Made by a program: the position numbers and the translations under genes. The notes under the pieces were generated by a model. That model saw only the letters and a list, made by a program, of their open reading frames with translations, did no database searches and was not told the DNA's origin. This document shows positions 26,247 to 50,608 of a stretch of 64,000 nt of DNA, piece by piece; the stretch's first letter is position 1, and each line of letters starts with the position of its first letter. This DNA comes from Candidatus Tayloriibacteriota bacterium. GTDB taxonomy: Bacteria > Patescibacteriota > Minisyncoccia > Phycocordibacterales > PALSA-1337. The stretch spans positions 6,015 through 70,014 of the forward strand of contig JANNAN010000013.1 of NCBI GenBank assembly GCA_031384385.1, written 5' to 3'.

Positions 26247-27239
26247 ATGAAAAAAATAAGAGTTGCCATTAATGGCTTTGGCCGAATCGGTCGTGCATTT
26301 TATAAAGTAGCAAAAGAAAATCCAAATATTGAAATTGTTGCTGTTAATGATTTAACTTCTCTTGAAAATGTAGAATATCTTTTAAAATATGATTCTGTTT
26401 ATGGGAAAAGTGACTATACTTTGAAAGGTGTTGAATATTTATCTGAAAAAGATCCAACATTATTACCATGGGGTAAATTTAATATTGATGTAGTTATAGA
26501 ATCTACTGGGTTATTTACATCAAGCGATAAGGCTCAAGCCCATATTCTTGCTGGTGCAAAGAGAGTTGTTGTTTCTGCGCCAATAAAAGATGATGCAATG
26601 TCAGTTGTAAAAGGTGAGACTATTCTAATGGGAATGAATGAAGAAAAGCTTTCTACTTGTCAGATTTCTTCTAATGCTTCTTGTACAACAAATGCCGGAA
26701 GCCCATTGCTTGCAATTCTGGATGAAGTTATCGGTGTTGAAAAAGCAGTTCTAAATACTGTACATGCATATACCGCTAGTCAGGCAATTGTTGATGGACC
26801 AAGTAAAAAAGATATGCGAGAAGGACGAGCAGCAGCAGAAAATATTGTTCCCTCAACTACTGGAGCAGCTATTGCAGTAACAAAGGTTATGACAGGTCTT
26901 ACTGGACTTTTTGATGGCATTTCTATAAGAGTTCCTGTTATCGCTGGTTCTATAGTGGATGTAACATTTATTTCAAAGAAAAATACAACAGTTGAAGAAG
27001 TAAATGAAGCTTTGAAAAAAGCAGCTTCAGAAGATCGTTGGAAGGGAATATTTACAGTTACAGAAGAAGATTTAGTTTCTTCAGATATAAAAGGGAATCC
27101 ACATGCATCAATCGCAGATCTTGCATTTACAAAAGTAGTTGGTGGAAATTTGGTAAAAGTTTTAGCTTGGTATGACAATGAGATGGGGTACACACATACC
27201 CTCGTGAATCATGTCATTGCGGCAGGAAGATTAGTCTAA
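26247..27239 (+). CDS. gap: glyceraldehyde-3-phosphate dehydrogenase (type I). Last ~25 codons are GC-richer and coincide with the integration site of the downstream element
   Basis: INGFGRIGR NAD fold, catalytic SNASCTTN, C-terminal WYDNEMGY. Confidence 0.9.
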   Translation: MKKIRVAINGFGRIGRAFYKVAKENPNIEIVAVNDLTSLENVEYLLKYDSVYGKSDYTLKGVEYLSEKDPTLLPWGKFNIDVVIESTGLFTSSDKAQAHILAGAKRVVVSAPIKDDAMSVVKGETILMGMNEEKLSTCQISSNASCTTNAGSPLLAILDEVIGVEKAVLNTVHAYTASQAIVDGPSKKDMREGRAAAENIVPSTTGAAIAVTKVMTGLTGLFDGISIRVPVIAGSIVDVTFISKKNTTVEEVNEALKKAASEDRWKGIFTVTEEDLVSSDIKGNPHASIADLAFTKVVGGNLVKVLAWYDNEMGYTHTLVNHVIAAGRLV

Positions 27240-27268
27240 AACCCAGACTTCTAAAATTCAATAAATTT

Positions 27269-27296
27269 AAAGACCTAGTAAATCTAGGTCTTTTTT
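27269..27296 (+). terminator. rho-independent terminator after gap
   Basis: AGACCTAG-TAAAT-CTAGGTCT hairpin plus TTTTTT. Confidence 0.6.
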
Positions 27297-27381
27297 GTAC
27301 CTAGGCTCGTCTACCAAAGGTCGAAATTTATTAACTAAAAAGTCATTGTCCTGAAAAGGATCAGCCGATGTACAACGGCAG

Positions 27382-27696
27382 ATGCTACCAATGAAAAATA
27401 AACCTAAAAGCACTAGAGCAGTTACCTATCGGAGATACGGCATCCCCGCCCTCATCCTCGAGGGAAAATGGCTCACAGAAAAATATCGATTGAACATAGG
27501 TGATGTCGTCGATATCGATTATCAACCTAAAAAAATTCGACTGCGAAAGAACCCTACTCTTAGTAAAGAGCGACAAACCATGCTCAAAGAGAAGGCAGAA
27601 ATCCGCAAACGAAGAATCCAAGGATACGCACATGACACCATCACAAACCAAGATGAAAACGCTAGCCAGAGAAGCATTAAAGTTAGTGAAGGATAA
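27382..27696 (+). CDS. SymE-family / AbrB-fold swapped-hairpin protein (toxin-like or regulator)
   Basis: VTYRRYGIPALILEGKWLTEKYRLNIGDVVDIDYQPKKIRL matches the SymE pattern (T-Y-RY-IP-L-G-WL-G-G-V-V-L). Confidence 0.45.
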   Translation: MLPMKNKPKSTRAVTYRRYGIPALILEGKWLTEKYRLNIGDVVDIDYQPKKIRLRKNPTLSKERQTMLKEKAEIRKRRIQGYAHDTITNQDENASQRSIKVSEG

Positions 27697-27928
27697 AGCG
27701 CCGACAATTGTCGACGAACAGATCTTGCCTCACATGCTCGATGAAGTAGCGGAATTCAGCGGCGACATCATGGGAAAGCTCACCAATCTTGATGCGGAAA
27801 ATGACAAAGCCATAACAATGGCACACGGCATTATCCGGGACGGATTGTTTAGCGAAATCATGAGTCAGATCAATGAAACGATGCTGGTAGAAGCCGACAA
27901 GAGAATTACTAAATTATTCAAAAAATAA
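27632..27928 (+). CDS. hypothetical protein (start uncertain; overlaps previous gene in another frame)
   Basis: In-frame Met codons at 27632 and 27653 within track ORF 27500-27928. Helical, no motif. Confidence 0.3.
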   Translation: MTPSQTKMKTLAREALKLVKDKAPTIVDEQILPHMLDEVAEFSGDIMGKLTNLDAENDKAITMAHGIIRDGLFSEIMSQINETMLVEADKRITKLFKK

Positions 27929-28006
27929 AATCTCCACGCAGGGAGAGATCGGATCCGTCAGATAGATTCATTCTCTCAAAAAGCCTCCGGGAAGTCAATA
28001 ACCATA

Positions 28007-29152
28007 ATGAACACACAAAATATAACAACAAATAAGCCAAAGGTGCATGATAACTTCTTCGCGCTAATTGGAAACACCAAACCCTACTTCAAGGCAGCCT
28101 TCGAAGGCTTCGCCGGAACGGGAAAAACCTATACGGCAGCTAAGGTTGCCATAGGTCTACACAAGAGAGTCGGATCAAAGAAACCGGTCATCATCTTTGA
28201 CACCGAGAAGGCGGCTAAGTTTCTTAAGTCCATGTTCGCAGCAGAAGGGATAGAGGTACTGGTCCGTGAATCAAAATCCCTCGCTGACCTCAAGGAGACG
28301 ATGACTCGCATGAGAGAGGGTGCGAGCGATGTTCTCATCATCGACTCAATCAGCCATGTCTGGGAGGACTTCCTCAAATCATACGCAGAGAAGGTACGAC
28401 GCACCAGATTGGAATTTCAAGACTGGGGCGTGATCAAGCCTACATGGAAGACAGAATTCTCCGATGTCTTCGTACGTGATCCATATCACATCATCATGAC
28501 TGGTCGTGCTGGCTATGAGTACGAGAACGAGATCAACAAAGAGACTGGGAAAAGAGAAATTTATAAGTCGGGAATAAAGATGAAGGTTGAGGGAGAGACG
28601 GCATATGAGCCTGACCTGCTTGTCCTCATGGAACGCATGCAGGAAATGGAAGGAGGTTCTATCAAGAAGGTGACACGACAAGGAATTGTTATCAAAGATC
28701 GATCGACCGTAATCGACGGTAAGGTCTTCGAAAATCCTGACTTCAAGGATTTTGCACCTGCAGTTGAAGTGATGCTAGAAGCTCCTGAAAAACTTGAGAC
28801 TACGGCTGAACGTGATGCAGGAACGCTCTTCCGAACCGAGGAAGAAAAGTATGAGTGGAAACAGATGAAGAAGCGATGGCTCGAGGAGATTGAGAATTAT
28901 CTCGTCTCTGTTTGGCCAGGACAATCTGCCGATCAAAAGAAACTCAAGATCGATGCCATCCAGTTTGCCTTCAACACAATGAGTTGGACGGTAGTCGAAT
29001 CATTGCGACCCGAAGCACTGGAAGCGGGATTCGCAAAGGTTCAGGAGTTTGTACGAAAGCACACCGCACTTCAGAGCGCAGAGATGAGTGGTGAACCAAT
29101 AAAGGTCGAAAAGCCAGTCAAGAAGACAGAAGCCAAGGCAAAAACAAAATAA
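28007..29152 (+). CDS. phage-type RecA-like ATPase (AAA_24 / Sak4-like) with C-terminal extension
   Basis: Walker A GFAGTGKT, Walker B LIIDSIS, ~230-aa core typical of phage Sak4-like recombination ATPases, Lys-rich tail. Confidence 0.55.
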   Translation: MNTQNITTNKPKVHDNFFALIGNTKPYFKAAFEGFAGTGKTYTAAKVAIGLHKRVGSKKPVIIFDTEKAAKFLKSMFAAEGIEVLVRESKSLADLKETMTRMREGASDVLIIDSISHVWEDFLKSYAEKVRRTRLEFQDWGVIKPTWKTEFSDVFVRDPYHIIMTGRAGYEYENEINKETGKREIYKSGIKMKVEGETAYEPDLLVLMERMQEMEGGSIKKVTRQGIVIKDRSTVIDGKVFENPDFKDFAPAVEVMLEAPEKLETTAERDAGTLFRTEEEKYEWKQMKKRWLEEIENYLVSVWPGQSADQKKLKIDAIQFAFNTMSWTVVESLRPEALEAGFAKVQEFVRKHTALQSAEMSGEPIKVEKPVKKTEAKAKTK

Positions 29153-29265
29153 AGAAAGCACTCGGAGCTTGGCCACTGACTCAATCCTCATCGCAGTGGC
29201 GTGAGGATTGAGATCAGGAGCTAAGCATCAAGGATCGCCTACGGGCGCTTTCTTTCTTCATCAAA

Positions 29266-29832
29266 ATGGAAGAACACAAAAAATACAATTTAATACCGAA
29301 TAGTACGCAGTTACCAAATATTCTTCTAGACAAGATCATTCCTCTTATCCCTGAAGCTGAAGCACGATGCTTGATTTACATATGTCGTCGCACCTTCGGT
29401 TTCCAAAAAGAATCGGATCGGATTAGTTTTTCGCAATTCATGGAAGGGATCAAAGATAGGAGAGGAATAGTTCTTGATTATGGAACCGGACTATCCCGCC
29501 AGTCAGTTTCTCAAGGACTCAAGAATCTGGTCCGTGCAGGGGTAGTCATTTCAAGCAAAAATAGCAAGGGAAATTTCTACAAAATTAACCTTGAAATGGC
29601 TGTGGATAAAGTAGTCTACCTAGTAGACCAGTCTAGAAAATTGACCAAAAGTGGTCTAAAGAATAGACCGAAATCGGTCTACCTAGTAGACACACAAAAC
29701 CAAGGAAACAAAGAGAAACCAAGTATTAGGGGTTCTACTGATCCTCCTGTGGATAACCGCCCTGAGTTTTTGAGGCTCATGGCAGATCTCACACAGAAGT
29801 TCTCTTTAAAAACTACTAACCAAAAATCATGA
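29266..29832 (+). CDS. replication initiator / replisome-organizer-like winged-helix protein with internal iterons
   Basis: N-terminal wHTH-like segment (CLIYICRRTF..SRQSVSQGLKNLVRAGVV). Coding sequence contains a cluster of palindromic repeats (see repeat feature). Confidence 0.45.
   Translation: MEEHKKYNLIPNSTQLPNILLDKIIPLIPEAEARCLIYICRRTFGFQKESDRISFSQFMEGIKDRRGIVLDYGTGLSRQSVSQGLKNLVRAGVVISSKNSKGNFYKINLEMAVDKVVYLVDQSRKLTKSGLKNRPKSVYLVDTQNQGNKEKPSIRGSTDPPVDNRPEFLRLMADLTQKFSLKTTNQKS
29614..29691. repeat. iteron-like cluster: GTCTACCTAGTAGAC x2 plus related GTCTAG and GGTCTAAAGAATAGACC; candidate origin of replication
   Basis: Exact 15-mer palindrome at 29614-29628 and 29677-29691. Related palindromes at 29631-29636 and 29653-29669, all inside the rep-like gene, encoding repeated VYLVD peptide. 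Confidence 0.5.
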
Positions 29833-30242
29833 AGCAATTCTCATTTACCATAGAAGGCAACCAAGATGATCGACTTGGAAATGCTATACCAAAGATCAGA
29901 AAGACATACCGACAGCAATGGACACCTGAAGCCCAAAGATATACGGCATGGAAAGGATTCATACAAGAAGCATTTCTCAGGTCTCTTGTAGATATTGATT
30001 TCAAAGTTCACATAAGATTTCAGAGATTGGTGAAGAAACCAATAAAACTTGCTGAGGGTGAGAAAGCTATTATGGACATCCGTATTTTCTGGAAAGACGA
30101 AACACATGGTGACCCAGAGAATATATTCGGCTCGATTGCAGATGCACTCTTCTACAACGATAAGTACCTTGACGGCTCATTCAAAAGTGAACTCGCCAAG
30201 GATGGAAAAGGTCGAGTGGAAATAATTATCAATATAAATTAA
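29829..30242 (+). CDS. rusA: RusA-family Holliday-junction resolvase
   Basis: 137 aa. GDPENIFGSIADALFYNDKYLDGSF matches the RusA D-x-DN-x-K-x3-DAL catalytic region. Confidence 0.55.
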   Translation: MKQFSFTIEGNQDDRLGNAIPKIRKTYRQQWTPEAQRYTAWKGFIQEAFLRSLVDIDFKVHIRFQRLVKKPIKLAEGEKAIMDIRIFWKDETHGDPENIFGSIADALFYNDKYLDGSFKSELAKDGKGRVEIIININ

Positions 30243-30248
30243 AAAACA

Positions 30249-30626
30249 ATGACAGCAGAACAAACAGGAGTAATCAAAGATAAATTTATTCTAGAACTTA
30301 ATGAGCAGATTTGGCGTAAGGAAATGAATATCGCCTTTGACCTCAGTAAAATTCCAGATATTGAAAAACTCCGCGATGTTAGGTTCAAGGAACTTGATGG
30401 TCTTAATGCCGATCTAAAGCTCATAGATTCAACTGACACAACAAAACAGAGTCGAATAAAGAGAAAGGATCTAGAAAAGAAAATAGCCCTAGCTGAGGAT
30501 TTCACCTTGAAGTGTGATGAGACGATCGTTGTAATTAGAGACAATACCAATAAGGAAAAAGAAAAGGTTGACCAATTACAAGCCAGAATTAAATTCGCAG
30601 AAACCTATGGAATCGACAAAAATTAA
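30249..30626 (+). CDS. hypothetical coiled-coil protein
   Basis: 125 aa, charged/helical, no motif. Confidence 0.4.
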   Translation: MTAEQTGVIKDKFILELNEQIWRKEMNIAFDLSKIPDIEKLRDVRFKELDGLNADLKLIDSTDTTKQSRIKRKDLEKKIALAEDFTLKCDETIVVIRDNTNKEKEKVDQLQARIKFAETYGIDKN

Positions 30627-31300
30627 AATTAATGAGTTAAGACGAGCTGAGTATAACCCACGCATTATGCCAGAAAATGAAATGTCTGCGCTTAAGACAA
30701 GTATCAAGACCTTCGGCTTTGTCGAATCAGTAGTGGTAAATACCCACACCTGTGACCAATGTGGTGACAGAAAATGGGTACTGGTAGGGGGTCATCAGCG
30801 AACTACCGCCGTAGAGGGGCTTGTAGCACAAGGTGAAGCCATAAAAGGCATTGAAACCAAGGATGGAGTCACCCTCATTCCAGCCAACCTAGTTGATTTA
30901 CACCTTCCTGAAGAAAAGCTTTTGAATCTCGCCCTCAATAAAATCAAAGGAAAATGGGATGAGAAAAAACTCTTCGAAATTATTGTCGAGCTTAAGGAAT
31001 CACCATCCATTCCCGCTTCGGGATTTCGAGACGATGAGATCAGCCGAATACTCGATCAGACTCTTGAGGACGAGGAAGAGGATGAAGGTGAGGGCGACGG
31101 TGCCGACAAAGAACCTCGCTCAAAGCTTGGCGAAATCTATGAGCTCGGGTCCCACAGGCTCATATGTGGTGATTCAACAGATCCCGATACGTACAAAAAA
31201 CTTCTTGGAGAGGAAAGGGCTGATATGGTTTTCACTGACCCTCCATACAATGTGAACTATAAAAGTCGAGGAAATAAACTCAAAGAGGAAGGTAATGAGT
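30568..31300 (+). pseudogene. ParB-like nuclease domain fused to N4/N6 DNA methyltransferase, truncated after motif IV by IS insertion
   Basis: ParB-nuclease-like N-terminus (INELRRAEYNPRIM..GGHQR) and methyltransferase motif IV MVFTDPPYNV. Reading frame runs straight into the IS left inverted repeat at 31301. Catalytic motif I and TRD missing. Confidence 0.6.
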
Positions 31301-31369
31301 TGGCCCTCCCCCCAAATTTAATACACCAATCTTGTATAATTAATAGAAATAATTAAATATATAAGGAAT

Positions 31370-31627
31370 ATGAAAACACATAAAATATCACCAGAGTTAA
31401 AGGAACAAATAATTAACAGGGTAAAGAATGAAGGTATATCAGTAGCACAAGCAGTAAAAGATCATGGTGTATCTGATAACACAATATATGGTTGGATATC
31501 AAAGAAAGTAGAAGGACAACCTACATTAGCTGAAGTATTGAAATTAAGAAAAGAAAATGATGAATTGAAAAGACTTGTCGGTGATATCACATTGAAACTT
31601 TCTCTACCCCAAAAAAAGAAGTGGTAA
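31370..31627 (+). CDS. IS3-family transposase OrfA (HTH)
   Basis: 85 aa, helix-turn-helix GISVAQAVKDHGVSDNTIYGW, ends at the frameshift window. Confidence 0.7.
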   Translation: MKTHKISPELKEQIINRVKNEGISVAQAVKDHGVSDNTIYGWISKKVEGQPTLAEVLKLRKENDELKRLVGDITLKLSLPQKKKW

Positions 31628-32412
31628 CTGAATCTAAAACTCTCAGGGCCAGAGAGTTAGGTATATCTAGAAGTAGTCTGTATTACAAACAAAAGAAACC
31701 AGAGGAAGACTGGAAATTAAAATGTAAAATTGAAGAAATACTCCGAGAACATCCAAGTTATGGTTCTCCACGTATTGCCATAGCTTTAAAACGTAATCAT
31801 AAACCAATTGAAAGAGTGATGAAGCTCTTTGGTATTAAGGCATATCGTAGAAGAGGTAAGAAGTGGAAAAAAACTAAGAACATCAAGGTAGTATACCCAA
31901 ATCTTCTTTTAACAAATCATCCAATGTATGAGAATCATATCTGGGTATCTGACTTTACTTACATCCCATTTCAAGGAAAATTTGTATATGTTGCTACTGT
32001 TGAAGATTTGTTTACAAGAAAAATAGTTGGAGTGGCGGTATATACCACGCATGCTACACAATTGGTATTGTCAGCATTCATGTCTGCAATACATAACAAT
32101 CCTAGACCTCTAATATTCCATTCAGACAATGGAAGTGAGTATGATTCAGATATATTCATACATGCATTAAATACCGTTGGAGTTTCAATATCTAGATCAG
32201 CTCCAGGTTGTCCGTGGGAAAATGGATATCAAGAATCATTCTATGATAAATTTAAAATTGATTTAGGTGATCCTAGTAGATTCAAGACTCTTGGAGAATT
32301 AGTATATGAAATCTATCATCGTATTTATGTTTACAACAATACTAGAATACATACAGCACTTAAAATGTCTCCAGTTCAATTTGCATTAAAAATTCGTCAG
32401 GGATACAATTAA
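31621..32412 (+). CDS. IS3-family transposase OrfB (DDE integrase core), expressed as OrfAB by -1 frameshift
   Basis: In -1 frame relative to orfA. rve-type DDE motifs. Confidence 0.7.
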   Translation: MVTESKTLRARELGISRSSLYYKQKKPEEDWKLKCKIEEILREHPSYGSPRIAIALKRNHKPIERVMKLFGIKAYRRRGKKWKKTKNIKVVYPNLLLTNHPMYENHIWVSDFTYIPFQGKFVYVATVEDLFTRKIVGVAVYTTHATQLVLSAFMSAIHNNPRPLIFHSDNGSEYDSDIFIHALNTVGVSISRSAPGCPWENGYQESFYDKFKIDLGDPSRFKTLGELVYEIYHRIYVYNNTRIHTALKMSPVQFALKIRQGYN

Positions 32413-32509
32413 CTCAATACAAGATTAGTGTCTAAAGAAATGGGGGAGGTACATTCTCTCAAAAGAACTCGCCACACATCTCACGGGTAGACATATTCCC
32501 ATAGAAATA

Positions 32510-33343
32510 TTGCCATTCGATTTCAAAGAGATTTTGAAAGCTAAGCAGTATGAATATTCAGCAGACAAAATGTTGTTACCCGAGGAAAAAGCTAAACTTC
32601 AGGGATACATAACTCAATACATGACAAATGGCGGCTTTCCAGAAGTTGTCACAAAAGATGTTGAACCTCGTGGCTATCTTGATGTACTCTTTGATGCAGT
32701 GCTTTTCAAAGATGTCATAAAGCGTCACAAGGTCCGCTTCTCAAAACAGATAGACAATCTTGGATCGTATTTGATAAATAATGTTTCAAGTCAGTACACT
32801 GCTAGAAAACTTGCTAGCGTTCTCACATTCAAGAGTGACGTTACTGTGGCAAAATACCTTGATTATTTGATTGAGGCATACCTAGTTTTCTCCTTGGATC
32901 GTCATTCGACCAAAGCTACTATGAGATTACAGCTGCCAAAGAAAACCTATGTGGTAGATAACGGCCTCGTTACTGCCAAGGCGGTTCAGCATTCTCCTAA
33001 TAGTGGTAAGCTAATGGAGAATCTCGTATTTATGGAACTTGTAAAAAGAGGACATCAGCCAAACCGTGAATTGTTCTACTACAGGACTCGTAACGATCGA
33101 GAGATAGATTTTGTACTTAAAAAAGGGCATGAGGTGGTCGAACTGCTACAGGTTTCCTATGATTCTACTAGCCAGGATGTTGAGGAGAGAGAAGTAAAGG
33201 CACTAGTTGAGGCAGCTGAGGAATTGAAAGTCACGAAGCTCACTGTACTCACTTGGAATGAAAAGAGGGAAATGAAGAAGGACGGAATGACGATACAGTT
33301 TATTCCACTTTGGGAATGGCTAACAAATAATTCTAACGAGTAA
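32510..33343 (+). pseudogene. C-terminal fragment of an AAA-ATPase with DUF4143-like domain (5' part removed at IS boundary)
   Basis: Frame is open back to the IS right end (..SKELATHLTGRHIPIEILPFDF..) with no ATG. Downstream sequence (ELFYYRTRNDREIDFVL, GHEVVELLQVSY) resembles the DUF4143 C-terminal module of AAA ATPases. The AAA domain itself is absent. Confidence 0.45.
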
Positions 33344-33347
33344 AATT

Positions 33348-33878
33348 ATGGTAGGGATTATTTTTGAAGCACATGGCACGACATTTGATAACGAAGCACA
33401 CCTTGCCTCTGGTCACTTTGATGTCGAACTTTCTCCTCTCGGTATTAAACAGTCTCAAGAAATGGGAGAAAGGTACAAAGATGAGCACTTTGAGATAATT
33501 TTCTGCTCGGATTTGCAAAGATCATATAAAAGTGCGGAGATTGCATTCGGCAATAGGTTTCCGATTGTGAAAGATGCACGATTGCGAGAATGCGACTATG
33601 GTGATTATACTCAACAACCTAGCGAAATAGTTGATCGACAAAAACCACAGAGAATTCATGAACCCTTTCCTAAAGGAGAAAGCTATGAGCAAACTACAGA
33701 AAGGATGAAGGCATTTCTCGAGGATCTTAGGAAGAAATGTGAAAACAGGAGAGTTATGATTATAGGTCATAGAGCCACTCAGTACGCACTCGAAAATCTT
33801 ATAAAGGGTGTTCCACTCGAAGAAATTATTCCTGCACCATGGAAATGGCAGCCGGGATGGAAGTATGAGTTGGAGTAA
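33348..33878 (+). CDS. histidine-phosphatase superfamily (phosphoglycerate-mutase-like) protein, noncanonical AHG instead of RHG
   Basis: IIFEAHGTTFDN..ELSPLG..IIFCSDLQRS..IIGHRATQYAL matches branch-1 histidine phosphatase layout. The Arg of the RHG motif is Ala. Confidence 0.55.
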   Translation: MVGIIFEAHGTTFDNEAHLASGHFDVELSPLGIKQSQEMGERYKDEHFEIIFCSDLQRSYKSAEIAFGNRFPIVKDARLRECDYGDYTQQPSEIVDRQKPQRIHEPFPKGESYEQTTERMKAFLEDLRKKCENRRVMIIGHRATQYALENLIKGVPLEEIIPAPWKWQPGWKYELE

Positions 33879-33888
33879 GTATTAAAAT

Positions 33889-34278
33889 ATGGAAAAGAAA
33901 TTCAAACATTTAGAATTTATCCAGTCAGTCATTAATAGAATGACAAACAATTCTTTTTTACTGAAAGGTTGGTGTTTGAGTATAATTGGAGCAATTTTTG
34001 CACTTAGAGGTGGAAATTCCTCAACCAGCATACTTCCACTCTTTGTAATTATGTTTTGGCTTCTAGATAGTTATTATCTTTCTCAGGAGAGACTATTTAT
34101 TGCTTTATATAACGACGTCGTTCCTAGATCAGAGGATAAAATCGATTTCTTAATGCATACAAAAAAGTTTTGTAGAGGAAGAAACACATGGTGGAGATCA
34201 TTTTTTTCTCATACCCCTGTGATTTTCTACGGATTTATTTTGATCGTAATCATATTTATTAATTCTAATTCTATATAG
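33889..34278 (+). CDS. small 3-TM membrane protein (candidate membrane effector partner of the downstream TIR protein)
   Basis: 129 aa. Amphipathic N-terminal helix then three hydrophobic helices. 10 bp after the phosphatase gene and 4 bp before the TIR-like gene. Confidence 0.5.
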   Translation: MEKKFKHLEFIQSVINRMTNNSFLLKGWCLSIIGAIFALRGGNSSTSILPLFVIMFWLLDSYYLSQERLFIALYNDVVPRSEDKIDFLMHTKKFCRGRNTWWRSFFSHTPVIFYGFILIVIIFINSNSI

Positions 34279-34282
34279 ATTT

Positions 34283-36118: not shown

Positions 36119-36124
36119 AGGTTT

Positions 36125-41275: not shown

Positions 41276-41288
41276 AGACAAGCTGACA

Positions 41289-42065: not shown

Positions 42066-42088
42066 AAATTCTACTTGTTGATTGTTTG

Positions 42089-42169
42089 AAAAGAACTGAA
42101 ATTCTATGAATCTGCGACTTCAGTCGTAGACTCAATAAAGTGCAGATTTTGATGGAATCTGCTAAAACC
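42089..42169 (-). ncRNA. family-1 structured element E4
   Basis: GGUUUUA-GCAGAUUCCAUCAAAAUCUGC-ACUUUAUUG-AGUCUACGAC-UGAA-GUCGCAGAUU-CAUAGAAUUUCAGUUCUUUU. Confidence 0.55.
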
Positions 42170-42852
42170 TGACCTCTAGCAATAGTGATCCACACGGATC
42201 GTATTGAAAGAGTAATCCCACCGACTCCCCGAGTACCTCTGATATCTCCACTTTCGTGAAAGTGTCAGTAGGCGACTGCGCTCTCGCTTGGAGAGCCGAC
42301 GACCTGTGTCGTCTGCGAACTTCAGTGTTCGCGATCTCCTTCTGTGGGAGATATCGAGTACACCATCGGTGGTGCTCGATTTTACAGGCTTAAAGCCAGG
42401 AAACTGCACCGTTGCACTACCGTATGATGTACTCATATTTTTATTTCGGTTGGTTGTTTTTGAAATATTCGCAGTTCGGAATCACCATGAATGTTCCTTG
42501 ACCAGGTACACACTCACAACTATCCGATGATGTATAAGAGATGGGGTTGTTATCCCGCATGAGGTTATGCCTCTAATCTCCCGTACACCTTGTTCTTTCC
42601 AGGGATGCATGCCCACGTAACGAACGTGGATTGGTCGAGCATTCCCTTTCGACAACAACCTTTCGGTTGAGGTGAAAGAACTAGAGCCCTACAAAATTCT
42701 GCCAATCTACTGAAAACCCTTGCAAGTTTTCTAAGTAATCGGAGCTAGAACAGTGTAGACCCCACACAATGGCTTCTGCGTAGCCTGTGCATATAACTGT
42801 CCTTAATAATTAATTCAGACCAATTATATGCACAAGCATTTCAAAATTTATT

Positions 42853-42931
42853 TAAAGAACTAAACTCTTTGGGCCAGCAACATTGTTGTAAGCCCAATAA
42901 AGTGCAGATTTTGATGGAATCTGCGAAAACC
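42853..42931 (-). ncRNA. family-1 structured element E5
   Basis: Same hairpin-2 sequence as E4 (GCAGAUUCCAUCAAAAUCUGC). Hairpin 1 GGGCUUACAAC-AAUG-UUGCUGGCCC. Not followed by an ORF for >400 nt. Confidence 0.5.
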
Positions 42932-43005
42932 ATTTGCTTTTCGGGGTTGATTATTGTCCGATAGCAGTGCGACTCTTTTTTGTTAGGAAAAGAGCTAGAG
43001 AAACC

Positions 43006-43395
43006 TTAGTAATCAAGAGGGTGGCATCTGTGCCCGACGCTCTCGCCCCATTTGTTTCTTTCAATCGGAGATTCGAGACCTCCAGACCGATAGAGACATT
43101 TGGTACGCGAGACCGCCAAGGCTTTGATGACATCGTCTCCGATCGTCCCTCGACGCACGAACTGCTTGCGCAAGCGGCGATATTCACGCGGGTTCTTGAT
43201 CAAGCCTAAGCTCTCACAAGTATCCCCGTAGTGACTACCCCGATTGTCGACAGCAATTGTGTGCCTGAAGAACAACCGTCGACCCTCGACCTTGAACGAG
43301 ATGACCCTGTAAGGGATCAGGCTCGCCCAATGGTGGTCCCTCGTGAACCTCTCCGTATGGATTTTGATTTCCATGGTTTGATTCGTTTTCATAGT
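43006..43395 (-). CDS. hypothetical protein
   Basis: Start taken at MKTNQTMEIK inside track ORF 43006-43416. Basic, no motif. Confidence 0.35.
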   Translation of the reverse strand, partial: TMKTNQTMEIKIHTERFTRDHHWASLIPYRVISFKVEGRRLFFRHTIAVDNRGSHYGDTCESLGLIKNPREYRRLRKQFVRRGTIGDDVIKALAVSRTKCLYRSGGLESPIERNKWGESVGHRCHPLDY

Positions 43396-43631
43396 TTCTC
43401 TATTTTTAATGTGCAAATTGGGCTGGCACCAGGGCTAGACTTCTTCAAGTGGCTAACTTGATAAAGCTTTCGCCGTGATGCCAGGAGAGTTTTTTGCGGG
43501 CTCTCAAACCGCCACATAGTACGACCGGCCAAGGTCTTCCTTGCTATATCTCCGTCTTTCAGGAGCTTCCAAGTGACCCTTAGAGCCCTTGGCTGATTTT
43601 CAGCAAATCTCATGCTCGCTACTTCTCGCAC
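43389..43631 (-). CDS. hypothetical protein
   Basis: 80-aa ORF, weak. Confidence 0.25.
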   Translation of the reverse strand: MREVASMRFAENQPRALRVTWKLLKDGDIARKTLAGRTMWRFESPQKTLLASRRKLYQVSHLKKSSPGASPICTLKIEKL

Positions 43632-43804
43632 TTTCGTGCAGTAGCTTCACACAAGTTCTCTGGTCGCGTGCCAGAGGGGATAGTACCGCCAACCCGGATG
43701 GGTCCGTATAGCATCTCCCTTCGGCCAAACACCATGTGAGTGTTCTGCCCTATGGGTATTCGAATTTCGAGTACCCATTTCGACAGAACACAATTTCAAG
43801 AAAC

Positions 43805-43859
43805 TTCTGTTTTCGTCTTTCAAGACTCATCAGTCGGAATACATATTCCGAGAACAGAG
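43805..43859 (-). ncRNA. hammerhead ribozyme HHR-6 (1-nt insertion at cleavage triplet)
   Basis: Minus-strand: CUCUG-UUC|UCGGAAU-AUGU-AUUCCGA-CUGAUGA-GUCU-UGAA-AGAC-GAAAAC-AGAAG. Stem II GUCU/AGAC compensatory variant. Extra U and extra A suggest a slightly degenerate copy. Confidence 0.65.
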
Positions 43860-43931
43860 AGACGATTTGCATCATCCCAGTAGTTTCCGCTCACCAAGCG
43901 CCCTGGAGCTACCCCAGAGAATTACGGGAGT

Positions 43932-44294
43932 TTAATGACTTCCATGGTCAGTCGAAGCGAGAACACTACGGTGTACCCACTGCACGGCTCCAAAGCCGGT
44001 GTCGTAGGATCTCTCGTAGTACACTGTTGCGTTTACATGCACAGGCTGGCCGTTGGTGAAGCCAGTCTCACCGGGAAAAAATCCCTTTTTGCCTTTGATT
44101 TTTCCTTCGAGAAAACGGACTTCGATTCCGTTCGCGCTCACCTTGGAAACAATTCCGGTGGCACTCGCTTCCTCACTCCATTTTTGTGGAGTAGCCAACT
44201 TTTTTGGTAAAGTGGCATAGAAACCGAAACCGATCAGGGCAAAGCCCAGAACAACCAAGAGAACCGCTAATGTCTTCTTCATAGAACTCTCCAT
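43932..44294 (-). CDS. hypothetical secreted/membrane-anchored protein
   Basis: Signal peptide/TM MKKTLAVLLVVLGFALIGFGFYA. Confidence 0.45.
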   Translation of the reverse strand: MESSMKKTLAVLLVVLGFALIGFGFYATLPKKLATPQKWSEEASATGIVSKVSANGIEVRFLEGKIKGKKGFFPGETGFTNGQPVHVNATVYYERSYDTGFGAVQWVHRSVLASTDHGSH

Positions 44295-44301: not shown

Positions 44302-44380
44302 TAAAGAACTGAAATCTATGAATCTACGACTTCAGTCGCAGACTCAATAAATTGATCATTTGAGGATTAATGATCAAACC
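44302..44380 (-). ncRNA. family-1 structured element E6
   Basis: Fills the whole intergenic space. Hairpin 2 UUGAUCAUU..AAUGAUCAA (different sequence, same fold). Hairpin 1 AGUCUGCGAC-UGAA-GUCGUAGAUU. Confidence 0.55.
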
Positions 44381-44783: not shown

Positions 44784-44862
44784 TAAAGAACTGAACTCAA
44801 TGGATTCACAACATCAGTTGCGAACCCAATAAAGTGCTGATTTTGAGAAAATCAGCGAAAAC
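44784..44862 (-). ncRNA. family-1 structured element E7 (most upstream copy)
   Basis: GGUUUUCGCUGAUUUUCUCAAAAUCAGC-ACUUUAUUG-GGUUCGCAAC-UGAU-GUUGUGAAUCC-AUUGAGUUCAGUUCUUUAAU. Confidence 0.55.
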
Positions 44863-45937: not shown

Positions 45938-46696
45938 TTACGGTTGGAGCCTCTTCTTTTTCTCATCAAAGCCAACATTGAAGATACTTCTGAATGTTTC
46001 TGCGAATTCCTTACTTCTTATAAAAATACCAGAAAGTTTTTTGCCAAGAATTGCAATTTTAACACGGTCTTCACAGATTGATATATCACATAATATTGGA
46101 TACTTATCTGCATCTACCTTCACCCTCTCACCGTCTTCACTTGTAGGGACTTCTCCATTTTTGTAAGTATACATTACTTTAGATTTGATGTTTTTACCTA
46201 GGCGCATACCTCGATATCTATCTCGCTCTTGTTTCGAAAATATTTCATCAACTAGATCCTTTGAGTATATTAAATAGCTGATGGCGTTTTCATTTTGTCC
46301 AAGAAAAAACTCTTCATGTAGACTTACCAATCCATCTCGACCTTCAAAATATTTTACGATAGGTTTTTCACCACCCTCTCTCTGAACACTCTTTATTTGA
46401 GGAATGACATCCTTTAATTTCTTTGACTGTTCATCAAGCATTATTTTTCGCTGCTCAACATATGTCTCTAATCTTTCTGGCGGCTCAGCTTGGTAATGAG
46501 TTTTCTTGCCAACTGTGGTTTCGGTCACCAGACCTTTTTTTGCAAGAGATTCCAACACGACATAGGTAGTCGATCGATTTAATTTGGTCTTTTTTGAGAG
46601 ATCAAGCACAGAGCTGTTCTCCATAGAAAGCAATGATATATAAACAATTGCCTCCTTCTCGCTCAGCCCGATGTCTTGTAGGTATTTTTCCAACAT
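45938..46696 (-). CDS. TrmB-family transcriptional regulator
   Basis: N-terminal HTH LGLSEKEAIVYISLL..SVLDLSKKTKLNRSTTYVVLESLAKKGLV typical of TrmB. AT-rich host-like composition. Confidence 0.6.
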   Translation of the reverse strand: MLEKYLQDIGLSEKEAIVYISLLSMENSSVLDLSKKTKLNRSTTYVVLESLAKKGLVTETTVGKKTHYQAEPPERLETYVEQRKIMLDEQSKKLKDVIPQIKSVQREGGEKPIVKYFEGRDGLVSLHEEFFLGQNENAISYLIYSKDLVDEIFSKQERDRYRGMRLGKNIKSKVMYTYKNGEVPTSEDGERVKVDADKYPILCDISICEDRVKIAILGKKLSGIFIRSKEFAETFRSIFNVGFDEKKKRLQP

Positions 46697-46720
46697 GCGA
46701 TTATATTAACATTGAAATCC

Positions 46721-47023
46721 TTAAAACGGAAGGGTCCCTGATAACTGGGGTGGTTCAACGAGATATTTCTCAATCAAATAAATCTCCTGCAAAAGACTGA
46801 CATAGTGCTTCTCATCCAGCTCATCATTTTTGAATTCTACCTTCTGATTTCTTTCGTTCACTTCAAGATAGATTCGACGTTTCTTATCACCAAAATCATA
46901 TAGTGTGAGTATGGTAAAAGATCCATCAAGTTTTTCGTTATACCAGATGATGGCATACTCGCCACGCCAGATGTGAGCATTTTTTCTTGCATCTTTAAAC
47001 GGATCAATGTTATACAAAGGCAT
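46721..47023 (-). CDS. hypothetical protein
   Basis: 100-aa ORF co-directional with the TrmB-like gene. Confidence 0.4.
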   Translation of the reverse strand: MPLYNIDPFKDARKNAHIWRGEYAIIWYNEKLDGSFTILTLYDFGDKKRRIYLEVNERNQKVEFKNDELDEKHYVSLLQEIYLIEKYLVEPPQLSGTLPF

Positions 47024-47119
47024 GTGGTATAATTACCATACTAATTCAAAAGTAAGTAATGTCCTTCAGCCAACTGGCAGATACTTTATGGGAGTAGAAG
47101 TAAATGATAATATATATCT

Positions 47120-47437
47120 ATGACTGACGAAGAAAAAAATGGAATATGGGCAGAACTAGAAAAAAAATCTCCTGATTTGATCAAGGCTTTTCTATCGCTT
47201 AAGAACGAAGATGAGCTAAAGGCATTTTTTAGAGATCTTATGAGTGAAAGAGATTTACGAGAGTTTGCGATGAGGTGGGAGGTGGCGAAGAAACTAGACG
47301 CCGGTACTCCATTTTCGCAGATTCAGGAAGAATCTGGTGAATCACCAGTAACAATCACAAAGATCAACCGATGGTTGAAGGAAGGTTGTGGTGGATATAA
47401 AATGATGATTGATCGACTCAATGGTGATCAAAAATAA
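47120..47437 (+). CDS. YerC/YecD-family TrpR-like protein
   Basis: FAMRWEVAKKLDAGTPFSQIQEESGESPVTITKINRWLKEGCGGYKMMIDRL matches the YerC/YecD helix-turn-helix family signature (RW.VA..L..G..Y..I...G.S..TI.R....L..G.GGY). Confidence 0.6.
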   Translation: MTDEEKNGIWAELEKKSPDLIKAFLSLKNEDELKAFFRDLMSERDLREFAMRWEVAKKLDAGTPFSQIQEESGESPVTITKINRWLKEGCGGYKMMIDRLNGDQK

Positions 47438-47519
47438 TTCGCACTTCCGCAAATTAAAGTATAGACTAAGGATTGATTCAGTCAGTTCTTTTTAACAACT
47501 CAACCAAAGGGAGGCTCCC

Positions 47520-48518
47520 ATGCAAACAGTCGATCAGACTCATGGGACCTACGTGGTTACCTATGATGTCGCTAGTCGCATTCAATCATTCCGCTCGAAA
47601 GGTTTTCATGTCCCGAATCAAAATGATTCAATGTTCGATAGATTCCACCTGCGTCTTCTTGAAACGATGCAAGATGCTCTACCAGGTGTGATGATTGACT
47701 CTATTGATATGAGCAAGCTTCGGCTTGAAATCTGGGAACAGGTGGAGGGTCGAATGGTAGATCTCAATCGTCAGGCTGTTCTCAGTACATGCCCAGAAAT
47801 CGCTGATTCGAATCCTAAAAGCGAGGGTTTGTTACTTAACGTCAACCGACTGTTCGACAAGAACGGACAGTTGATTGGGTACGGTCCTCGTCCTGGATTT
47901 GAATTGTTGACAAATCAACTTGATAAATTGGCAAGAAAAATTGCCGGCCGATCCGTCATTCTCATCGAGGACGGCGCATTTACTGGTGGCACTCTCAGCT
48001 TTGTTTTGAAGGAGCTCGAGAGTCGAGGTATTAAGGTCACTGCCATAATTATTGGTTTCTGCTGTAATGGCTCGCGAACTGTTCTCCGGAAGGCGTTCAG
48101 TGAAGAGCTTGTTATGGTACATCCGGTCACTGATTTGGTGGACTGGATTCCTGACCATGATCTCATTCCGTTCATTCCGAATTGTGGACGTGTCCTCGGT
48201 GAACATTCGATGCAAGGCTATATGCCGATCCGAACGGTCAGTGGTTTCAGTTGTGCTTATCCCTACATTCTTCCTTTCGGCAGGATCGAGGAGTGGGCGA
48301 GTCTACCGGACGAAGGCGCTCGAGCTGTATCGAGACTTTGTCTTGATACTAGTATCGAAATCTTCAGCCATGTAGGGTGTAAAATCACGATAGGAAAGCT
48401 TCTGGAACTGAATCCGAGGGTCTCATTGCCTATCAGGATCGGTTCTCATGAGGTGTTGCCTGCCTTGGATATGGAGATTGTTAGCTTTTTGAAGCAGATG
48501 CGAGAAAAGCTAGAATAG
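47520..48518 (+). CDS. phosphoribosyltransferase-domain protein (type I PRTase fold with N- and C-terminal extensions)
   Basis: AAGGGAGG RBS. PRPP-binding loop VILIEDGAFTGGTL. Function of extensions unknown. Confidence 0.5.
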   Translation: MQTVDQTHGTYVVTYDVASRIQSFRSKGFHVPNQNDSMFDRFHLRLLETMQDALPGVMIDSIDMSKLRLEIWEQVEGRMVDLNRQAVLSTCPEIADSNPKSEGLLLNVNRLFDKNGQLIGYGPRPGFELLTNQLDKLARKIAGRSVILIEDGAFTGGTLSFVLKELESRGIKVTAIIIGFCCNGSRTVLRKAFSEELVMVHPVTDLVDWIPDHDLIPFIPNCGRVLGEHSMQGYMPIRTVSGFSCAYPYILPFGRIEEWASLPDEGARAVSRLCLDTSIEIFSHVGCKITIGKLLELNPRVSLPIRIGSHEVLPALDMEIVSFLKQMREKLE

Positions 48519-48540
48519 ACCTCCTATTTTCCATGAAAAA

Positions 48541-48577
48541 TCAGTCGCATTGCTCAAAAGGTAGTGCGATTTTTTTC
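48541..48577 (+). terminator. rho-independent terminator
   Basis: TCGCA..TGCGA hairpin followed by TTTTTTT. Confidence 0.5.
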
Positions 48578-48890
48578 TAAATTGTCATTAAACCCTTATT
48601 CTTGTTGACATAATAGATATTTTACTCTGCATATTACTATCCAATGAAATATCCTTCTTGACAATGGTTAAGCACTACACTAGGATGTAGTGACAACCGA
48701 ATATGAATCCATTGCCCCGAAAGGGATCAGGCCATAGTGGCCGGATGCTACCGATGGACTTTTGATTAACATTGCCTTGCTATTTCCAAAAAGATAGGGG
48801 AAAATGTAAATGATGTGGTCGCAAGACTACGTCTCCCTAGCTAGGGAATGACAAGACGCTCATTGAGCTGACAGCCACCAAAAGTCCACT

Positions 48891-49898
48891 TTGAGTAGCA
48901 TCGAGTGGGCTTTTTGGTTGGCTATTATGTTATTCAAAGATGCAATAAACGAATTCAGTGGCTGGAGACAGATCAAGGTTTCCGGTCACACAGTTATAAG
49001 ATACGATAAAGTATTGAAGATTTTTTGTCTGTACCTACGCAACCCACACATTGAAGCCATAACGCTCAATGATGTGATGAATTATTTGAATATGATGAAG
49101 GAGCTCGGATGGAAACGAAACGGCATAATAATTGTAACTTTGGCGCTAAAGAAATTCTTTGAGTTTTATAACTTGCAGAAGTTCAACGTAATCAATGAAT
49201 CTCTCATACCCACCCCTCGCAAAGAATACAACATACCACGCATCGCAACAGAGCAAGGATATAAAAAACTTATTAACTCGATACCGAAGGACAATAAACC
49301 ACATCACATTAGGAACCGCGCATTGATGGCTTTACTCTGGGATACTGGTGCTCGAAATGGGGAGATCATATCACTCAATGTAAGTGACCTTGATTTAAAC
49401 AAAAGGACTGCGTTGATCAGAACTGAAAAGTCCCGCGGACGTAGACCGATCCGTGAAATATTCTGGACACCGAGTACGAATGCGCTCTTGAAAAGATGGG
49501 TGAAGAAAAGAAAGTATTTGTTACAACTCTTCACCTTTGAAGATCTCGATTCATTATTTGTATCAATTTCTAAATGCGGTCAAAATGCTGTCAGGGGACG
49601 TAGAATGTCCGTTGTTGGTGTTGCTGAAATGTTGCGCACTAATTCTAACCGTGCAGGTATACCAACCTTGAATGCACACTCGATGAGACATTTCATGGGG
49701 CGAGATATTGTGAATAGGGGTGGATCAAATTCTGATGTCTCAAACATTCTTGGCCACTCTAGTCTAGAAAGTTCGATGATTTACACTATGATGACAGGTC
49801 CCGATCTTCACAGGAGATACGATATGTTTCGGGATGTGCCGAGGAACCAGAGAGCAAAGAAATATAAAATTCCCAGAACAAGAGCTATTCATTGCTAA
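48891..49898 (+). CDS. tyrosine site-specific recombinase / integrase
   Basis: 335 aa. Catalytic R..HxxR..Y region (HSMRHFMGR, ILGHSS, IYT). At the island end adjacent to displaced gap-terminus copies. Confidence 0.75.
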   Translation: MSSIEWAFWLAIMLFKDAINEFSGWRQIKVSGHTVIRYDKVLKIFCLYLRNPHIEAITLNDVMNYLNMMKELGWKRNGIIIVTLALKKFFEFYNLQKFNVINESLIPTPRKEYNIPRIATEQGYKKLINSIPKDNKPHHIRNRALMALLWDTGARNGEIISLNVSDLDLNKRTALIRTEKSRGRRPIREIFWTPSTNALLKRWVKKRKYLLQLFTFEDLDSLFVSISKCGQNAVRGRRMSVVGVAEMLRTNSNRAGIPTLNAHSMRHFMGRDIVNRGGSNSDVSNILGHSSLESSMIYTMMTGPDLHRRYDMFRDVPRNQRAKKYKIPRTRAIHC

Positions 49899-49921
49899 CA
49901 TACGTCTGTTATAATAACCCT

Positions 49922-50065
49922 GTGAAAAATAAAGCAGCACAGCAACTTGGTCGTAAGGGCGGATCAACAACGATTCGCAAGTATGGCAAAAGACACTTCA
50001 GCCGAATGGGGAAGCTGAGTGGTAAGAAAAGGCGAAGTAAGGCCATAAAAGAGGCCGTATTTTGA
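49922..50065 (+). CDS. 47-aa basic KGG-repeat-like small protein
   Basis: GTG start. GRKGGSTTIRKYGKRHFSRMGKLSGKKRRSK. Followed by AACGCTTG..CAAGCGTT hairpin. Confidence 0.3.
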   Translation: MKNKAAQQLGRKGGSTTIRKYGKRHFSRMGKLSGKKRRSKAIKEAVF

Positions 50066-50262
50066 CGCTTGCTATTAAACAAGCGTTTGTTTATGATGAT
50101 GTTAACGAACTTTGACAGCTGAATTTCAAATCCTCGCTCGCCTTTCAAGATCACAATTTCATTGCTATTTTGGAAGACGAGCGTACTAGGAATTTAAATC
50201 AAATTGAATCCCGTGTTAAAATAAAGTTATGAAAAAGTCGAAAAACACGGAAAATCTGCCAG

Positions 50263-50336
50263 CATGGTACCGATGTGAAATGGGGTATACGTATACTCTG
50301 GTACGGCACGTAATTGAAGCTGGAAAATTGATTTAA
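50263..50336 (+). repeat. diverged copy B of the gap 3' terminus (encodes AWYRCEMGYTYTLVRHVIEAGKLI-stop), displaced att-associated remnant
   Basis: ~60% nt identity but conserved translation relative to gap 27165-27239. Confidence 0.6.
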
Positions 50337-50342
50337 CCTAAA

Positions 50343-50534
50343 ATGAAGATACTAAAAATAATTTTAAGTGTAATAATCTTGTATCTAGTACTTTCATTTT
50401 TCCTGCCAATTTTTCCTCACTGGACTAAACACAGCTATACTGGCGGTGGGGTTGCTGGCGGTGTCTTTACCAACATCTGGTATACGGTGAGCTGGGATAC
50501 CTTGACGGTATCAATAGTAACCGAACAAAAATGA
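50343..50534 (+). CDS. 63-aa small membrane protein between the two displaced gap-terminus copies
   Basis: AT-rich, hydrophobic N-terminus. May be relic cargo of an older insertion. Confidence 0.3.
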   Translation: MKILKIILSVIILYLVLSFFLPIFPHWTKHSYTGGGVAGGVFTNIWYTVSWDTLTVSIVTEQK

Positions 50535-50608
50535 CTTGGTACGACAATGAAGTAAGGTATACATATACACTGGTGGATCATGTGGTAAAGATGGGGAGAC
50601 TTGTTTAA
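50534..50608 (+). repeat. copy C of the gap 3' terminus (TWYDNEVRYTYTLVDHVVKMGRLV-stop), host-like AT-rich codons. Probable original gene end displaced by integration
   Basis: 15/16 identity to gap over CTTGGTAYGACAATGA (candidate core), then diverges. Codon usage matches backbone. Confidence 0.6.

Follow-up and report, generated by a model that had tools for sequence, protein, structure and literature searches.

An apparent defective prophage in the last codons of gap, and the displaced gene termini beside it, in a Candidatus Tayloriibacteriota bacterium

Why should a bacterial chromosome hold three versions of the end of one glycolytic gene, one on the gene itself and two more some 23 kb away? 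The question is raised by a stretch of 64,000 nucleotides (nt) from contig JANNAN010000013.1 of a Candidatus Tayloriibacteriota bacterium (assembly GCA_031384385.1), here called the window, in which gap, the gene for glyceraldehyde-3-phosphate dehydrogenase (GAPDH), is separated from rpiB by DNA that ends in a tyrosine integrase gene and two further gap termini. A first-pass annotation of the sequence had proposed that an element integrated into the gap 3' end and brought a replacement terminus with it. The empty site of a close relative, a terminus that travels with the same foreign DNA between hosts, and a junction of attP type in another relative all uphold that proposal, and we are confident that a temperate tailed phage, now defective, was integrated in the last gap codons by a tyrosine integrase, replacing the terminus of the gene. 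Feature positions are collected in Table 1; loci used for comparison are designated by L numbers.

Three termini of gap and the empty site

The gap open reading frame (ORF) is intact, ends in AWYDNEMGYTHTLVNHVIAAGRLV and a stop, and keeps all conserved C-terminal residues in its own terminus (A, 27165-27239). Two more termini had been placed after the integrase, 23 kb downstream, and ORF translation and a profile of 80 patescibacterial gap termini agree with this. Copy B, which encodes AWYRCEMGYTYTLVRHVIEAGKLI and a stop in frame with an ATG at 50229, begins at 50262, one base before the 50263 first given; copy C encodes TWYDNEVRYTYTLVDHVVKMGRLV and a stop. With profile E-values of 5e-13 for A, 3.5e-10 for B and 1e-7 for C, the termini are not chance matches, and nothing else in the 64-kb window matched the profile. 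Residues that are invariant in working genes are altered in B (DN to RC) and in C (MG to VR), which marks these two as pseudo-copies; A is the one working terminus. Terminus A has a GC content of 0.45, against 0.35 in the preceding 900 nt of gap; the annotation was right that the end of the gene is GC-richer, but the part borne by the element is 16 codons rather than the last ~25. The interval from A to B is a compositional island, with GC of 0.37-0.50 as against 0.25-0.35 on either side.

The nearest gap genes are patescibacterial and come from metagenome-assembled genomes labelled Paceibacteria, Parcubacteria or Nomurabacteria. As a rule rpiB lies no more than 4 kb after gap (65 of 74 patescibacterial loci, and within 150 nt in 28 of those), with rpe and tkt after rpiB; in the window the distance is 23.8 kb. 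Just one of the 74 loci, the prophage-bearing L004, extends for over 10 kb beyond gap without reaching rpiB. The closest relative found, L105 (JGI Ga0456297_000002), is island-free, with a GAPDH (P0242) 96% identical in amino acids (aa) and flanks that are syntenic on both sides at 82-87% nt identity. It aligns to window positions 26221-27199 (90% nt) and then directly to 50276-50590, 50615-50983 and from 51013 onward, so that 23 kb are skipped, and it runs from gap through a B-type terminus, the small ORF and C to rpiB. Its working gap terminus, ending in MGYTHTLVRHVIEAGKLI and a stop, is of B type, and the last 12 aa of copy B are identical to the termini of L105, L002 and L093. The window and L105 GAPDH differ at 14 aa, 4 of them within the last 10 residues. 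L105 thus shows the unoccupied attB expected of integration of the e14/icd type, without the 23 kb and with the B-type end in use. It had been set down beforehand that an island-free relative with an A-type end would count against integration; since L105 has the B type, the integration reading survives.

The single small ORF that had been noted between B and C is also present in this relative. It lies in a spacer of 197 nt (period 272 nt), and because an orthologous ORF occupies the same place in island-free L105, the spacer is older than the prophage.

The DNA next to terminus A is shared among hosts. The left arm of the element (27.2-31.3 kb) is ~86% nt identical to gap-adjoining DNA in L004, L089-L092 and L093/L094, and this arm and the same terminus lie beside gap in hosts with gap bodies no more than ~65% (L004) and 79% (L093) identical in nt to that of the window. 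These comparisons bear on the view that A is the native gap end, the element having inserted just downstream, with B and C as decoys or products of local duplication. Such a view would account for the fact that only A keeps all the conserved residues while B and C are degenerate. It is contradicted by the B-type terminus of L105 and by the A-type sequence (CACACATACCCTCGTGAATCATGTCATTGCGGCAGG...) itself, which is contiguous with phage DNA and 88-90% nt identical among hosts with gap bodies of 65-79%. Moreover, the attL of L093 reads RLTWHID and then, across the junction, EMGYTYTLVNHVIAAGRLV and a stop, so that a perfect right half from the phage, of A type, has been joined to a degenerate left half, 1.9 kb from the working gap end. 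We give a native A almost no credence.

Table 1. Positions in the window of gap, its termini, the attachment sites and the features of the element, with the basis of each assignment
Feature	Position	Strand	Basis
gap (GAPDH, 330 aa), chimeric: host DNA up to core, phage DNA for last 16 codons and stop	26247-27239	+	translation, L105 alignment
attL crossover interval GAGATGGGGTA	27180-27190	+	informative positions either side
8-bp core ATGGGGTA in attL	27183-27190	+	four-way att alignment
Phage-borne replacement gap terminus (..(Y)THTLVNHVIAAGRLV, stop), 16 codons and stop	27191-27239	+	identity to prophage copies
Putative defective prophage, ~23.1 kb	27191-50279	+	GC island, L105 gap, arm similarity
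Three-way-junction motif, copy 1; 3' strand holds ATG of ORF 27382-27696	27342-27398	+	covariance model R1, 81 bits
Phage replication and recombination module	28007-31299	+	Pfam, PHROGs
AAA_24/Sak4-like ATPase	28007-29152	+	Pfam, PHROGs
RepO-like initiator	29266-29832	+	Pfam, PHROGs
RusA-like resolvase	29829-30242	+	Pfam, PHROGs
orf125, then ParB-N6/N4 methyltransferase cut at residue 231 of 427	up to 31299	+	tblastn
IS3-family insertion sequence: orfA 31370-31627, orfB 31621-32412; 33-nt terminal inverted repeats	31305-32449	+	Pfam; similarity to intact prophages stops at 31298
Non-phage cargo: 5'-truncated DUF4143, histidine phosphatase, membrane protein, ThsB-like TIR protein	32510-34768	+	Pfam
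ThsB-like TIR-domain protein	34283-34768	+	PF08937 E=1e-25
Small ORFs, no assigned family, with six hammerhead motifs	35387-44294	-	Rfam
Type III hammerhead motifs (RF00008), six	36052-36112, 38980-39032, 39416-39494, 40495-40548, 41118-41172, 43805-43859	-	Rfam
TrmB-like	45938-46696	-	Pfam
orf100	within 45938-48518	-	Pfam scan of regulatory/integration-module neighbours
TrpR-like	47120-47437	+	Pfam
PRTase-like	47520-48518	+	Pfam
Three-way-junction motif, copy 2, upstream of int	48708-48761	+	covariance model R1, 67 bits
Tyrosine integrase (int), XerC/D-like fold, apparently intact	48891-49898	+	PF00589 E=8e-25, PF02899
P arm, phage right end abutting core	50217-50279	+	conserved after int in relatives
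Copy B: left third, phage mimic of AWY..E; from 50288 on, displaced former working gap terminus	50262-50336	+	identity to working termini
8-bp core ATGGGGTA in attR	50280-50287	+	four-way att alignment
Spacer/mini-cassette between B and C, with 63-aa membrane-type ORF (50343-50534)	50337-50533	+	orthologous ORF, same place, in island-free L105
Copy C, older decayed terminus, core GTAAGGTA	50534-50608	+	versus L105: T2 (left)/T3 (right) hybrid
rpiB, conserved downstream neighbour of gap (synteny anchor)	51043-51504	+	gene-order comparison

Attachment sites, crossover and integrase

An alignment of the three copies with the gap genes of island-free relatives, the check suggested at the outset, defined both attB (in L105) and the core, ATGGGGTA. 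Identities were counted on either side of this shared 8-mer (39 nt to the left, 49 nt to the right), with L105 (10898-10993) as the reference attB, L087 (11290-11445) as attP, and L004 and L089 as phage copies. To the left, attL (A) matches attB at 36 of 39 positions and attP at 21; to the right, it matches the L004 prophage at 44 of 49, the L089 prophage at 43 and the L087 attP at 39, against 31 for attB. The pattern at attR (B) is reciprocal, with 34-36 of 39 left positions shared with the P arms of L087, L081 and L103 and 20 with attB, and with 39 and 41 of 49 right positions shared with the working termini of L105 and L002, against 32 with attP. Across A, B, attP and attB the core is identical, and an identical core between reciprocal host and element flanks is expected of integration of the e14/icd type. 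As in icd, the displaced codons have a functional substitute, a terminus that accompanies the phage in L004, L089 and L093. The half-sites indicate that the recombination partner of A was B and not C. L103 offers a natural control: there the P arm meets, at the core, a GC-rich terminus of the host, and the stop of this terminus overlaps the start of rpiB.

The exchange can be bracketed from its informative positions. The last codon that tells host from P arm is 27177-27179 and the first base that tells phage from host is 27191 (C versus T), which confines the exchange to 27180-27190, GAGATGGGGTA; cleavage would have fallen within this interval. The first-pass annotation had taken CTTGGTAYGACAATGA, shared by gap and C, as the crossover core. 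That stretch lies to the left of the exchange, where the P-arm side of B differs (CGATGTGAA) and A keeps the host sequence; the core is instead ATGGGGTA within GAGATGGGGTA, shared with B. A jump in identity at 27136 between the window and L004 was also discarded as a crossover, as L002 is equally similar there and the jump reflects general conservation of that part of gap.

The P arm, with the sequence TAAAATAAAGTxATGAAAAAGxCGAAAAACAxGxAAAATCTGCCAGCATGGTAC, runs into copy B and also follows the integrase gene in L081 and L087. The mimic that it carries varies in its left part (AWYSN, AWYRC, AWYRY), a freedom to be expected if nothing but the sequence to the right of the core ever comes to be coding. 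A 35-aa ORF (MKKSKNTENLPAWYRCEMGY...KLI, stop) at 50229-50336 begins in the P arm and runs through copy B; its ATG and frame are kept in the L087 junction and after int in L081. In L087 (NCBI JBQVBM010009808.1), whose integrase is 91% identical to that of the window, int is followed by the P arm, by AWYSNEMGYTHTLVQHVIKAGMLV and a stop, and then by the left-end genes of the phage, an order that makes an attP-type junction. Judging from its gene order, the L087 contig (31.9 kb) would probably not close a circle.

The integrase gene ends 364 nt before copy B, and its product aligns at the catalytic positions with XerA (4a8e): ARNGE (R), HSMRH (HxxR), GHSS (H) and IYT (Y). It has, then, the R..HxxR..H..Y signature of tyrosine recombinases in a gene adjoining one att site, and full-length homologues are 77-92% identical to it; this enzyme would have catalyzed the integration. 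A TrpR-like gene (PF01371), a gene for ~320-340 aa and int make up a conserved three-gene module (47120-49898 in the window, and in L081, L087, L095 and L098). The middle gene is PRTase-like in the window, matches PRTase faintly or weakly in L087 and L095, and has no Pfam hit in L081 or L098. The module is kept where the rest differs, next to phage genes in L087 and L095 and next to glycosyltransferase or other cargo genes in L081 and L098. A candidate for the role of regulator or directionality factor is the TrpR-like protein.

Taken in order, the events would be as follows. Before the phage arrived, an older pseudo-terminus (C) and a small ORF would already have been at the site, left by earlier events. 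A temperate tailed phage of Paceibacteria, with an attP carrying a mimic of the gap 3' end, would then have entered the last codons of the host gap by site-specific recombination of its tyrosine integrase, with strand exchange inside GAGATGGGGTA. After integration gap would read from host DNA into 16 phage codons and a stop (attL, 27183-27239) and stay intact, and the former terminus would be stranded behind the integrase gene (attR, copy B). Later, late and morphogenesis genes would have been lost at the junction that now holds an IS3 element and unrelated cargo gained, presumably in this order.

Several points weigh against this account. The shared core is only 8 bp long. The attP-type junction comes from one relative, L087, and the attB from another, L105, rather than from this element, and the L087 junction could fit a circular or concatemeric phage genome and equally well tandem prophages. 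Within the element no excisionase was recognized. A search of a viral-contig collection returned nothing for the integrase protein and nothing for the DNA pattern of P arm and core, so these scans yielded no free phage genome of the family. Finally, the loss of late genes is shown for the head genes and the Dcm methylase only. A scan of a single metagenome with the pattern of P arm and core gave attR-type junctions (L102-L104) and no attP. The lysogen of the window has been assembled in Logan run SRR20217212 as well.

Gene content and RNA motifs of the element

What kind of element was integrated is best seen from its two arms. In tblastn comparisons the L089 proteins match the replication and recombination module at 90-98% identity, up to a methyltransferase match that ends at 31299, and nt similarity to intact prophages stops at 31298. 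The right arm (~36.6-50.3 kb) is common to L087 and L095, at 72-97% nt identity by segment. Relatives of the left arm (L004, L089-L094) carry genes for a Dcm methylase, a terminase-like protein, a 731-aa portal-MuF fusion, an HK97-fold capsid and a connector, and their terminase-like, portal and HK97 genes identify the family as temperate tailed phage. In the window, neither tblastn with L089 and L093 proteins nor Pfam or PHROGs detected Dcm, terminase, portal or capsid genes; the copy thus lacks the terminase, portal and capsid by which a Caudoviricetes prophage is recognized, and since its relatives have the head genes it is a defective derivative. An intact relative would span ~45 kb, provided that the L081 and L093 contigs (~92.7 kb each) are taken as the same locus in opposite orientation. 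Among deposited phage genomes no close relative was found (capsid 24%, integrase no more than 27% identity). The 30 island ORFs scanned include no Pfam family of relaxases, coupling proteins or VirB4/type IV secretion, so that the element does not have the makeup of an integrative and conjugative or integrative and mobilizable element.

The IS3-family element has no target-site duplication, and the genes on its two sides are both truncated, ParB-methyltransferase at the 3' end and DUF4143 at the 5' end; these features point to a junction of deletion or rearrangement and not to a simple insertion. This junction bears on whether the 23-kb element was ever a complete phage here. It may instead be a phage-related island or satellite, similar to phage-inducible chromosomal islands, that depends on a helper and shares integration and replication modules with phages. 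The presence of int, a replication module and regulators without structural genes fits a satellite, as does the finding of the TrpR-like/int module with non-phage cargo in L098 and L081. Yet the left arm is co-linear with intact prophages, at 86% nt identity, exactly up to the methyltransferase gene that the IS3 element cuts at residue 231 without target duplication, and the next gene, DUF4143, has lost its 5' end as well. Truncations on both sides of the junction speak for secondary deletion or rearrangement rather than a designed satellite, which we hold to be very improbable. The element is better described as a degraded, rearranged prophage than simply as the integrative element of the first-pass annotation.

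Unrelated cargo extends over 32.5-35.3 kb. The histidine phosphatase segment (within 32510-33878) matches L098, a different island linked to gap, at 81% nt identity, and no ThsA partner was detected near the ThsB-like TIR gene. For 17 of 18 ORFs tested across 33.9-44.3 kb, Pfam and PHROGs gave no family, the sole assignment being the TIR protein, outside the minus-strand block.

The small minus-strand ORFs at 36-44 kb are interleaved with the type III hammerhead motifs. One motif (41118-41172) exceeds the Rfam gathering score (49.6 versus 48.5 bits), and the other five are predicted below it, at 24-40 bits and E-values from 1e-5 to 0.37. Homologous hammerheads occur in the same right-arm module of L087 and L095, three copies in each. 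Prophages with several type III hammerheads between short genes of one strand near the integrase end have been described, the ribozymes being read as processing long transcripts (PMC3088659). The arrangement here is alike in the placing of the motifs; it differs in that only one of the six putative ribozymes reaches the gathering score. We found no earlier report of such an arrangement in this host phylum in the literature searched.

A second RNA motif, a three-way junction of ~55 nt with the form CAUUG-[CCCnnnnGGG]-AUCAG-[variable hairpin]-nGAUGCUAC-CAAUG, has two copies in each phage genome, one where the left-most ORF begins and one ahead of int. Further loci that carry it are L004, L017, L081, L087 (two copies), L089, L093, L095 and L098. 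All three helices covary, and the model recovered an L087 copy that was outside the seed alignment. It has no match in 1.36 Mb of host flanks and none in Rfam, which makes it a possible candidate for a new regulatory RNA or ribozyme. A third copy in the window, at 43305, was dismissed as a partial chance match.

There is also a repeated unit, at 37525-37576, 38018-38045, 38426-38453, 42090-42168, 42854-42930, 44302-44380 and 44784-44862. At least five minus-strand ORFs have it just ahead of their starts or overlapping them; on that strand, it consists of a covarying hairpin (e.g. GGGUUUACGACUGAUGUCGCGAACCC) followed by a conserved box, GAGUUCAGUUCUUU. It may be a 5' untranslated region, processing or promoter element.

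Repeated use of the site and its relation to known systems

There is good support for repeated use of the gap site across Paceibacteria. Integrases of 77-92% identity lie between gap and rpiB in L081-L086, L095-L097, L098-L101 and L102-L104, and in every case a copy of the terminus comes after them. Nine genomes have arrays of two to five pseudo-termini (L002, L009, L022, L023, L036, L070, L081, L093 and L096), with toxin-antitoxin, AbiEii, Fic or small membrane-protein genes in their spacers. In L093 a complete-looking prophage lies distal to three small units, so that the distal pseudo-site was used. Arrays of decayed termini and the integrases of relatives substantiate the repeated integration that had been deduced from the two displaced copies; for the window itself, the reduction of an older large element to the ~270-bp B-C unit is no more than plausible. 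The unit is already present in island-free L105. It (50337-50608) has att-repeat flanks and no recombination or mobilization genes, as do the cis-mobilizable elements (CIMEs) and microCIMEs of streptococci. An integron it is not, since the repeats are gap-terminus copies and not attC hairpins, with a phage integrase at the distal end.

Rather than shrunken large elements, the B-C and similar units could be small cassettes of one to three genes and one terminus repeat, recombining at the repeats and mobilized in trans by phage integrases, in the manner of CIMEs or integrons, or by homologous recombination. L105 has within 11194-12090 an extra unit of 821 bp (orf216 and one terminus) that is absent from the window, with boundaries exactly at terminus repeats, and the window C looks like a hybrid of the repeats that bound it, T2 on the left and T3 on the right; units are therefore gained or lost at repeats. 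The array spacers and the distal prophage of L093 can be read in the same way. However, T2 and T3 of L105 share ~40 identical nt, and homologous recombination between these repeats explains the indel without an integrase. Most pseudo-terminus cores are as decayed as their flanks (0-5 mismatches in 8, with 3 in copy C), as relics would be. Recent cassette mobility was rejected after an all-against-all tblastx of spacers, in which no near-identical cassette was shared by two unrelated hosts and the best matches were distant relatives at 49-73% aa; nor was a circular cassette junction seen. Decayed cores and the absence of near-identical cassettes favor relics over active mini-elements, and small cassettes are a possibility to which we attach modest weight.

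Two further features of the arrays stand apart. The three-base core variant GTAAGGTA (EVRY for EMGY) is found at 50552-50559, near 11298 in L070 and near 9195 in L096, each time in the second pseudo-terminus, and L105 T2, which shares its left flank (orf63) with the window C, keeps the normal ATGGGGTA; the recurrence may reflect convergence or gene conversion, or it may be the trace of a second family of elements. At 12107-12920, L105 has a PemK-type toxin gene that the window lacks, between two stretches of ~160 nt that both align to window 50615-50774, apparently a local duplication around an insertion.

We suggest, tentatively and as somewhat unlikely at present, that the gap-rpiB interval is a multi-site landing pad, where each integration adds a terminus repeat and cassettes (toxin-antitoxin, Fic, TIR, membrane) are gained, lost and shuffled at the repeats, possibly mobilized in trans by gap-specific phage integrases. 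If this is true, phages would drive an integron-like array of cassettes attached to an essential gene.

Integration by a defective phage into the end of gap, the reading that we prefer, has close precedents. According to PMC6379469 (citing Hill et al. 1989), e14 and phage 21 occupy the icd 3' end of Escherichia coli, where the prophage supplies the terminal codons and leaves icd' (163 bp). The element described here resembles e14 in being a defective prophage that encodes a tyrosine integrase, lies in the 3' end of a gene of central metabolism and has a displaced pseudo-terminus at its other end, e14 being described there as lambdoid (PMC6379469). Unlike it, it targets gap, brings only 16 codons, has an identical core of ~8 bp, resides in Patescibacteria/Paceibacteria, has an XerC/D-like integrase no more than 27% identical to any in deposited phage genomes, and stands where several older pseudo-termini pile up. 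In streptococci, the ICESt1/ICESt3 family and its CIMEs and microCIMEs use the 3' ends of fda, rpsI and rpmG by accretion-mobilization, and the decayed microCIMEs (130-220 bp) and CIMEs (1.2-13 kb) are gene-poor or gene-free with their att repeats kept (PMC7563491). Both systems have in common integration at the 3' end of a gene for glycolysis or housekeeping, tandem arrays formed through an att site flanking a resident element, and relics (PMC7563491), but the large elements here are phages and not conjugative, and most att repeats have decayed. A dedicated clade of tyrosine integrases serves one protein gene, dusA, in many genomes, where the element makes the end of the gene whole again (PMC4482086); those elements take the 5' end of another gene, in unrelated hosts, whereas here the 3' end is used. 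Integration into gap had been called unusual at the outset. As a target gap is new, our literature searches having found no report of it as a prophage attB, but replacement of a 3' terminus and tandem accretion with tiny relics are established (PMC6379469, PMC7563491). The mechanism is therefore known, from e14 in icd and from ICESt in fda with its CIMEs; what is new is the gene targeted, the group of hosts and the family of phage.

Documentation of prophages and of the sites where they attach is poor for Patescibacteria, the candidate phyla radiation (CPR). The present site defines a family of temperate phages and islands with XerC/D-like integrases (77-92% identical in the copies inspected) that sit at one conserved site, the end of gap, in several lineages of Paceibacteria. 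A gap-terminus repeat between gap and rpiB is a simple marker for such prophages and their relics, and the site gives a way to link uncultured phages to CPR hosts. The integrase and attP form a candidate pair for inserting DNA site-specifically in bacteria that are difficult to engineer. For the hosts, the finding means that phages repeatedly swap the C-terminus of an essential glycolytic enzyme, as the altered last 10 residues of the window GAPDH illustrate.

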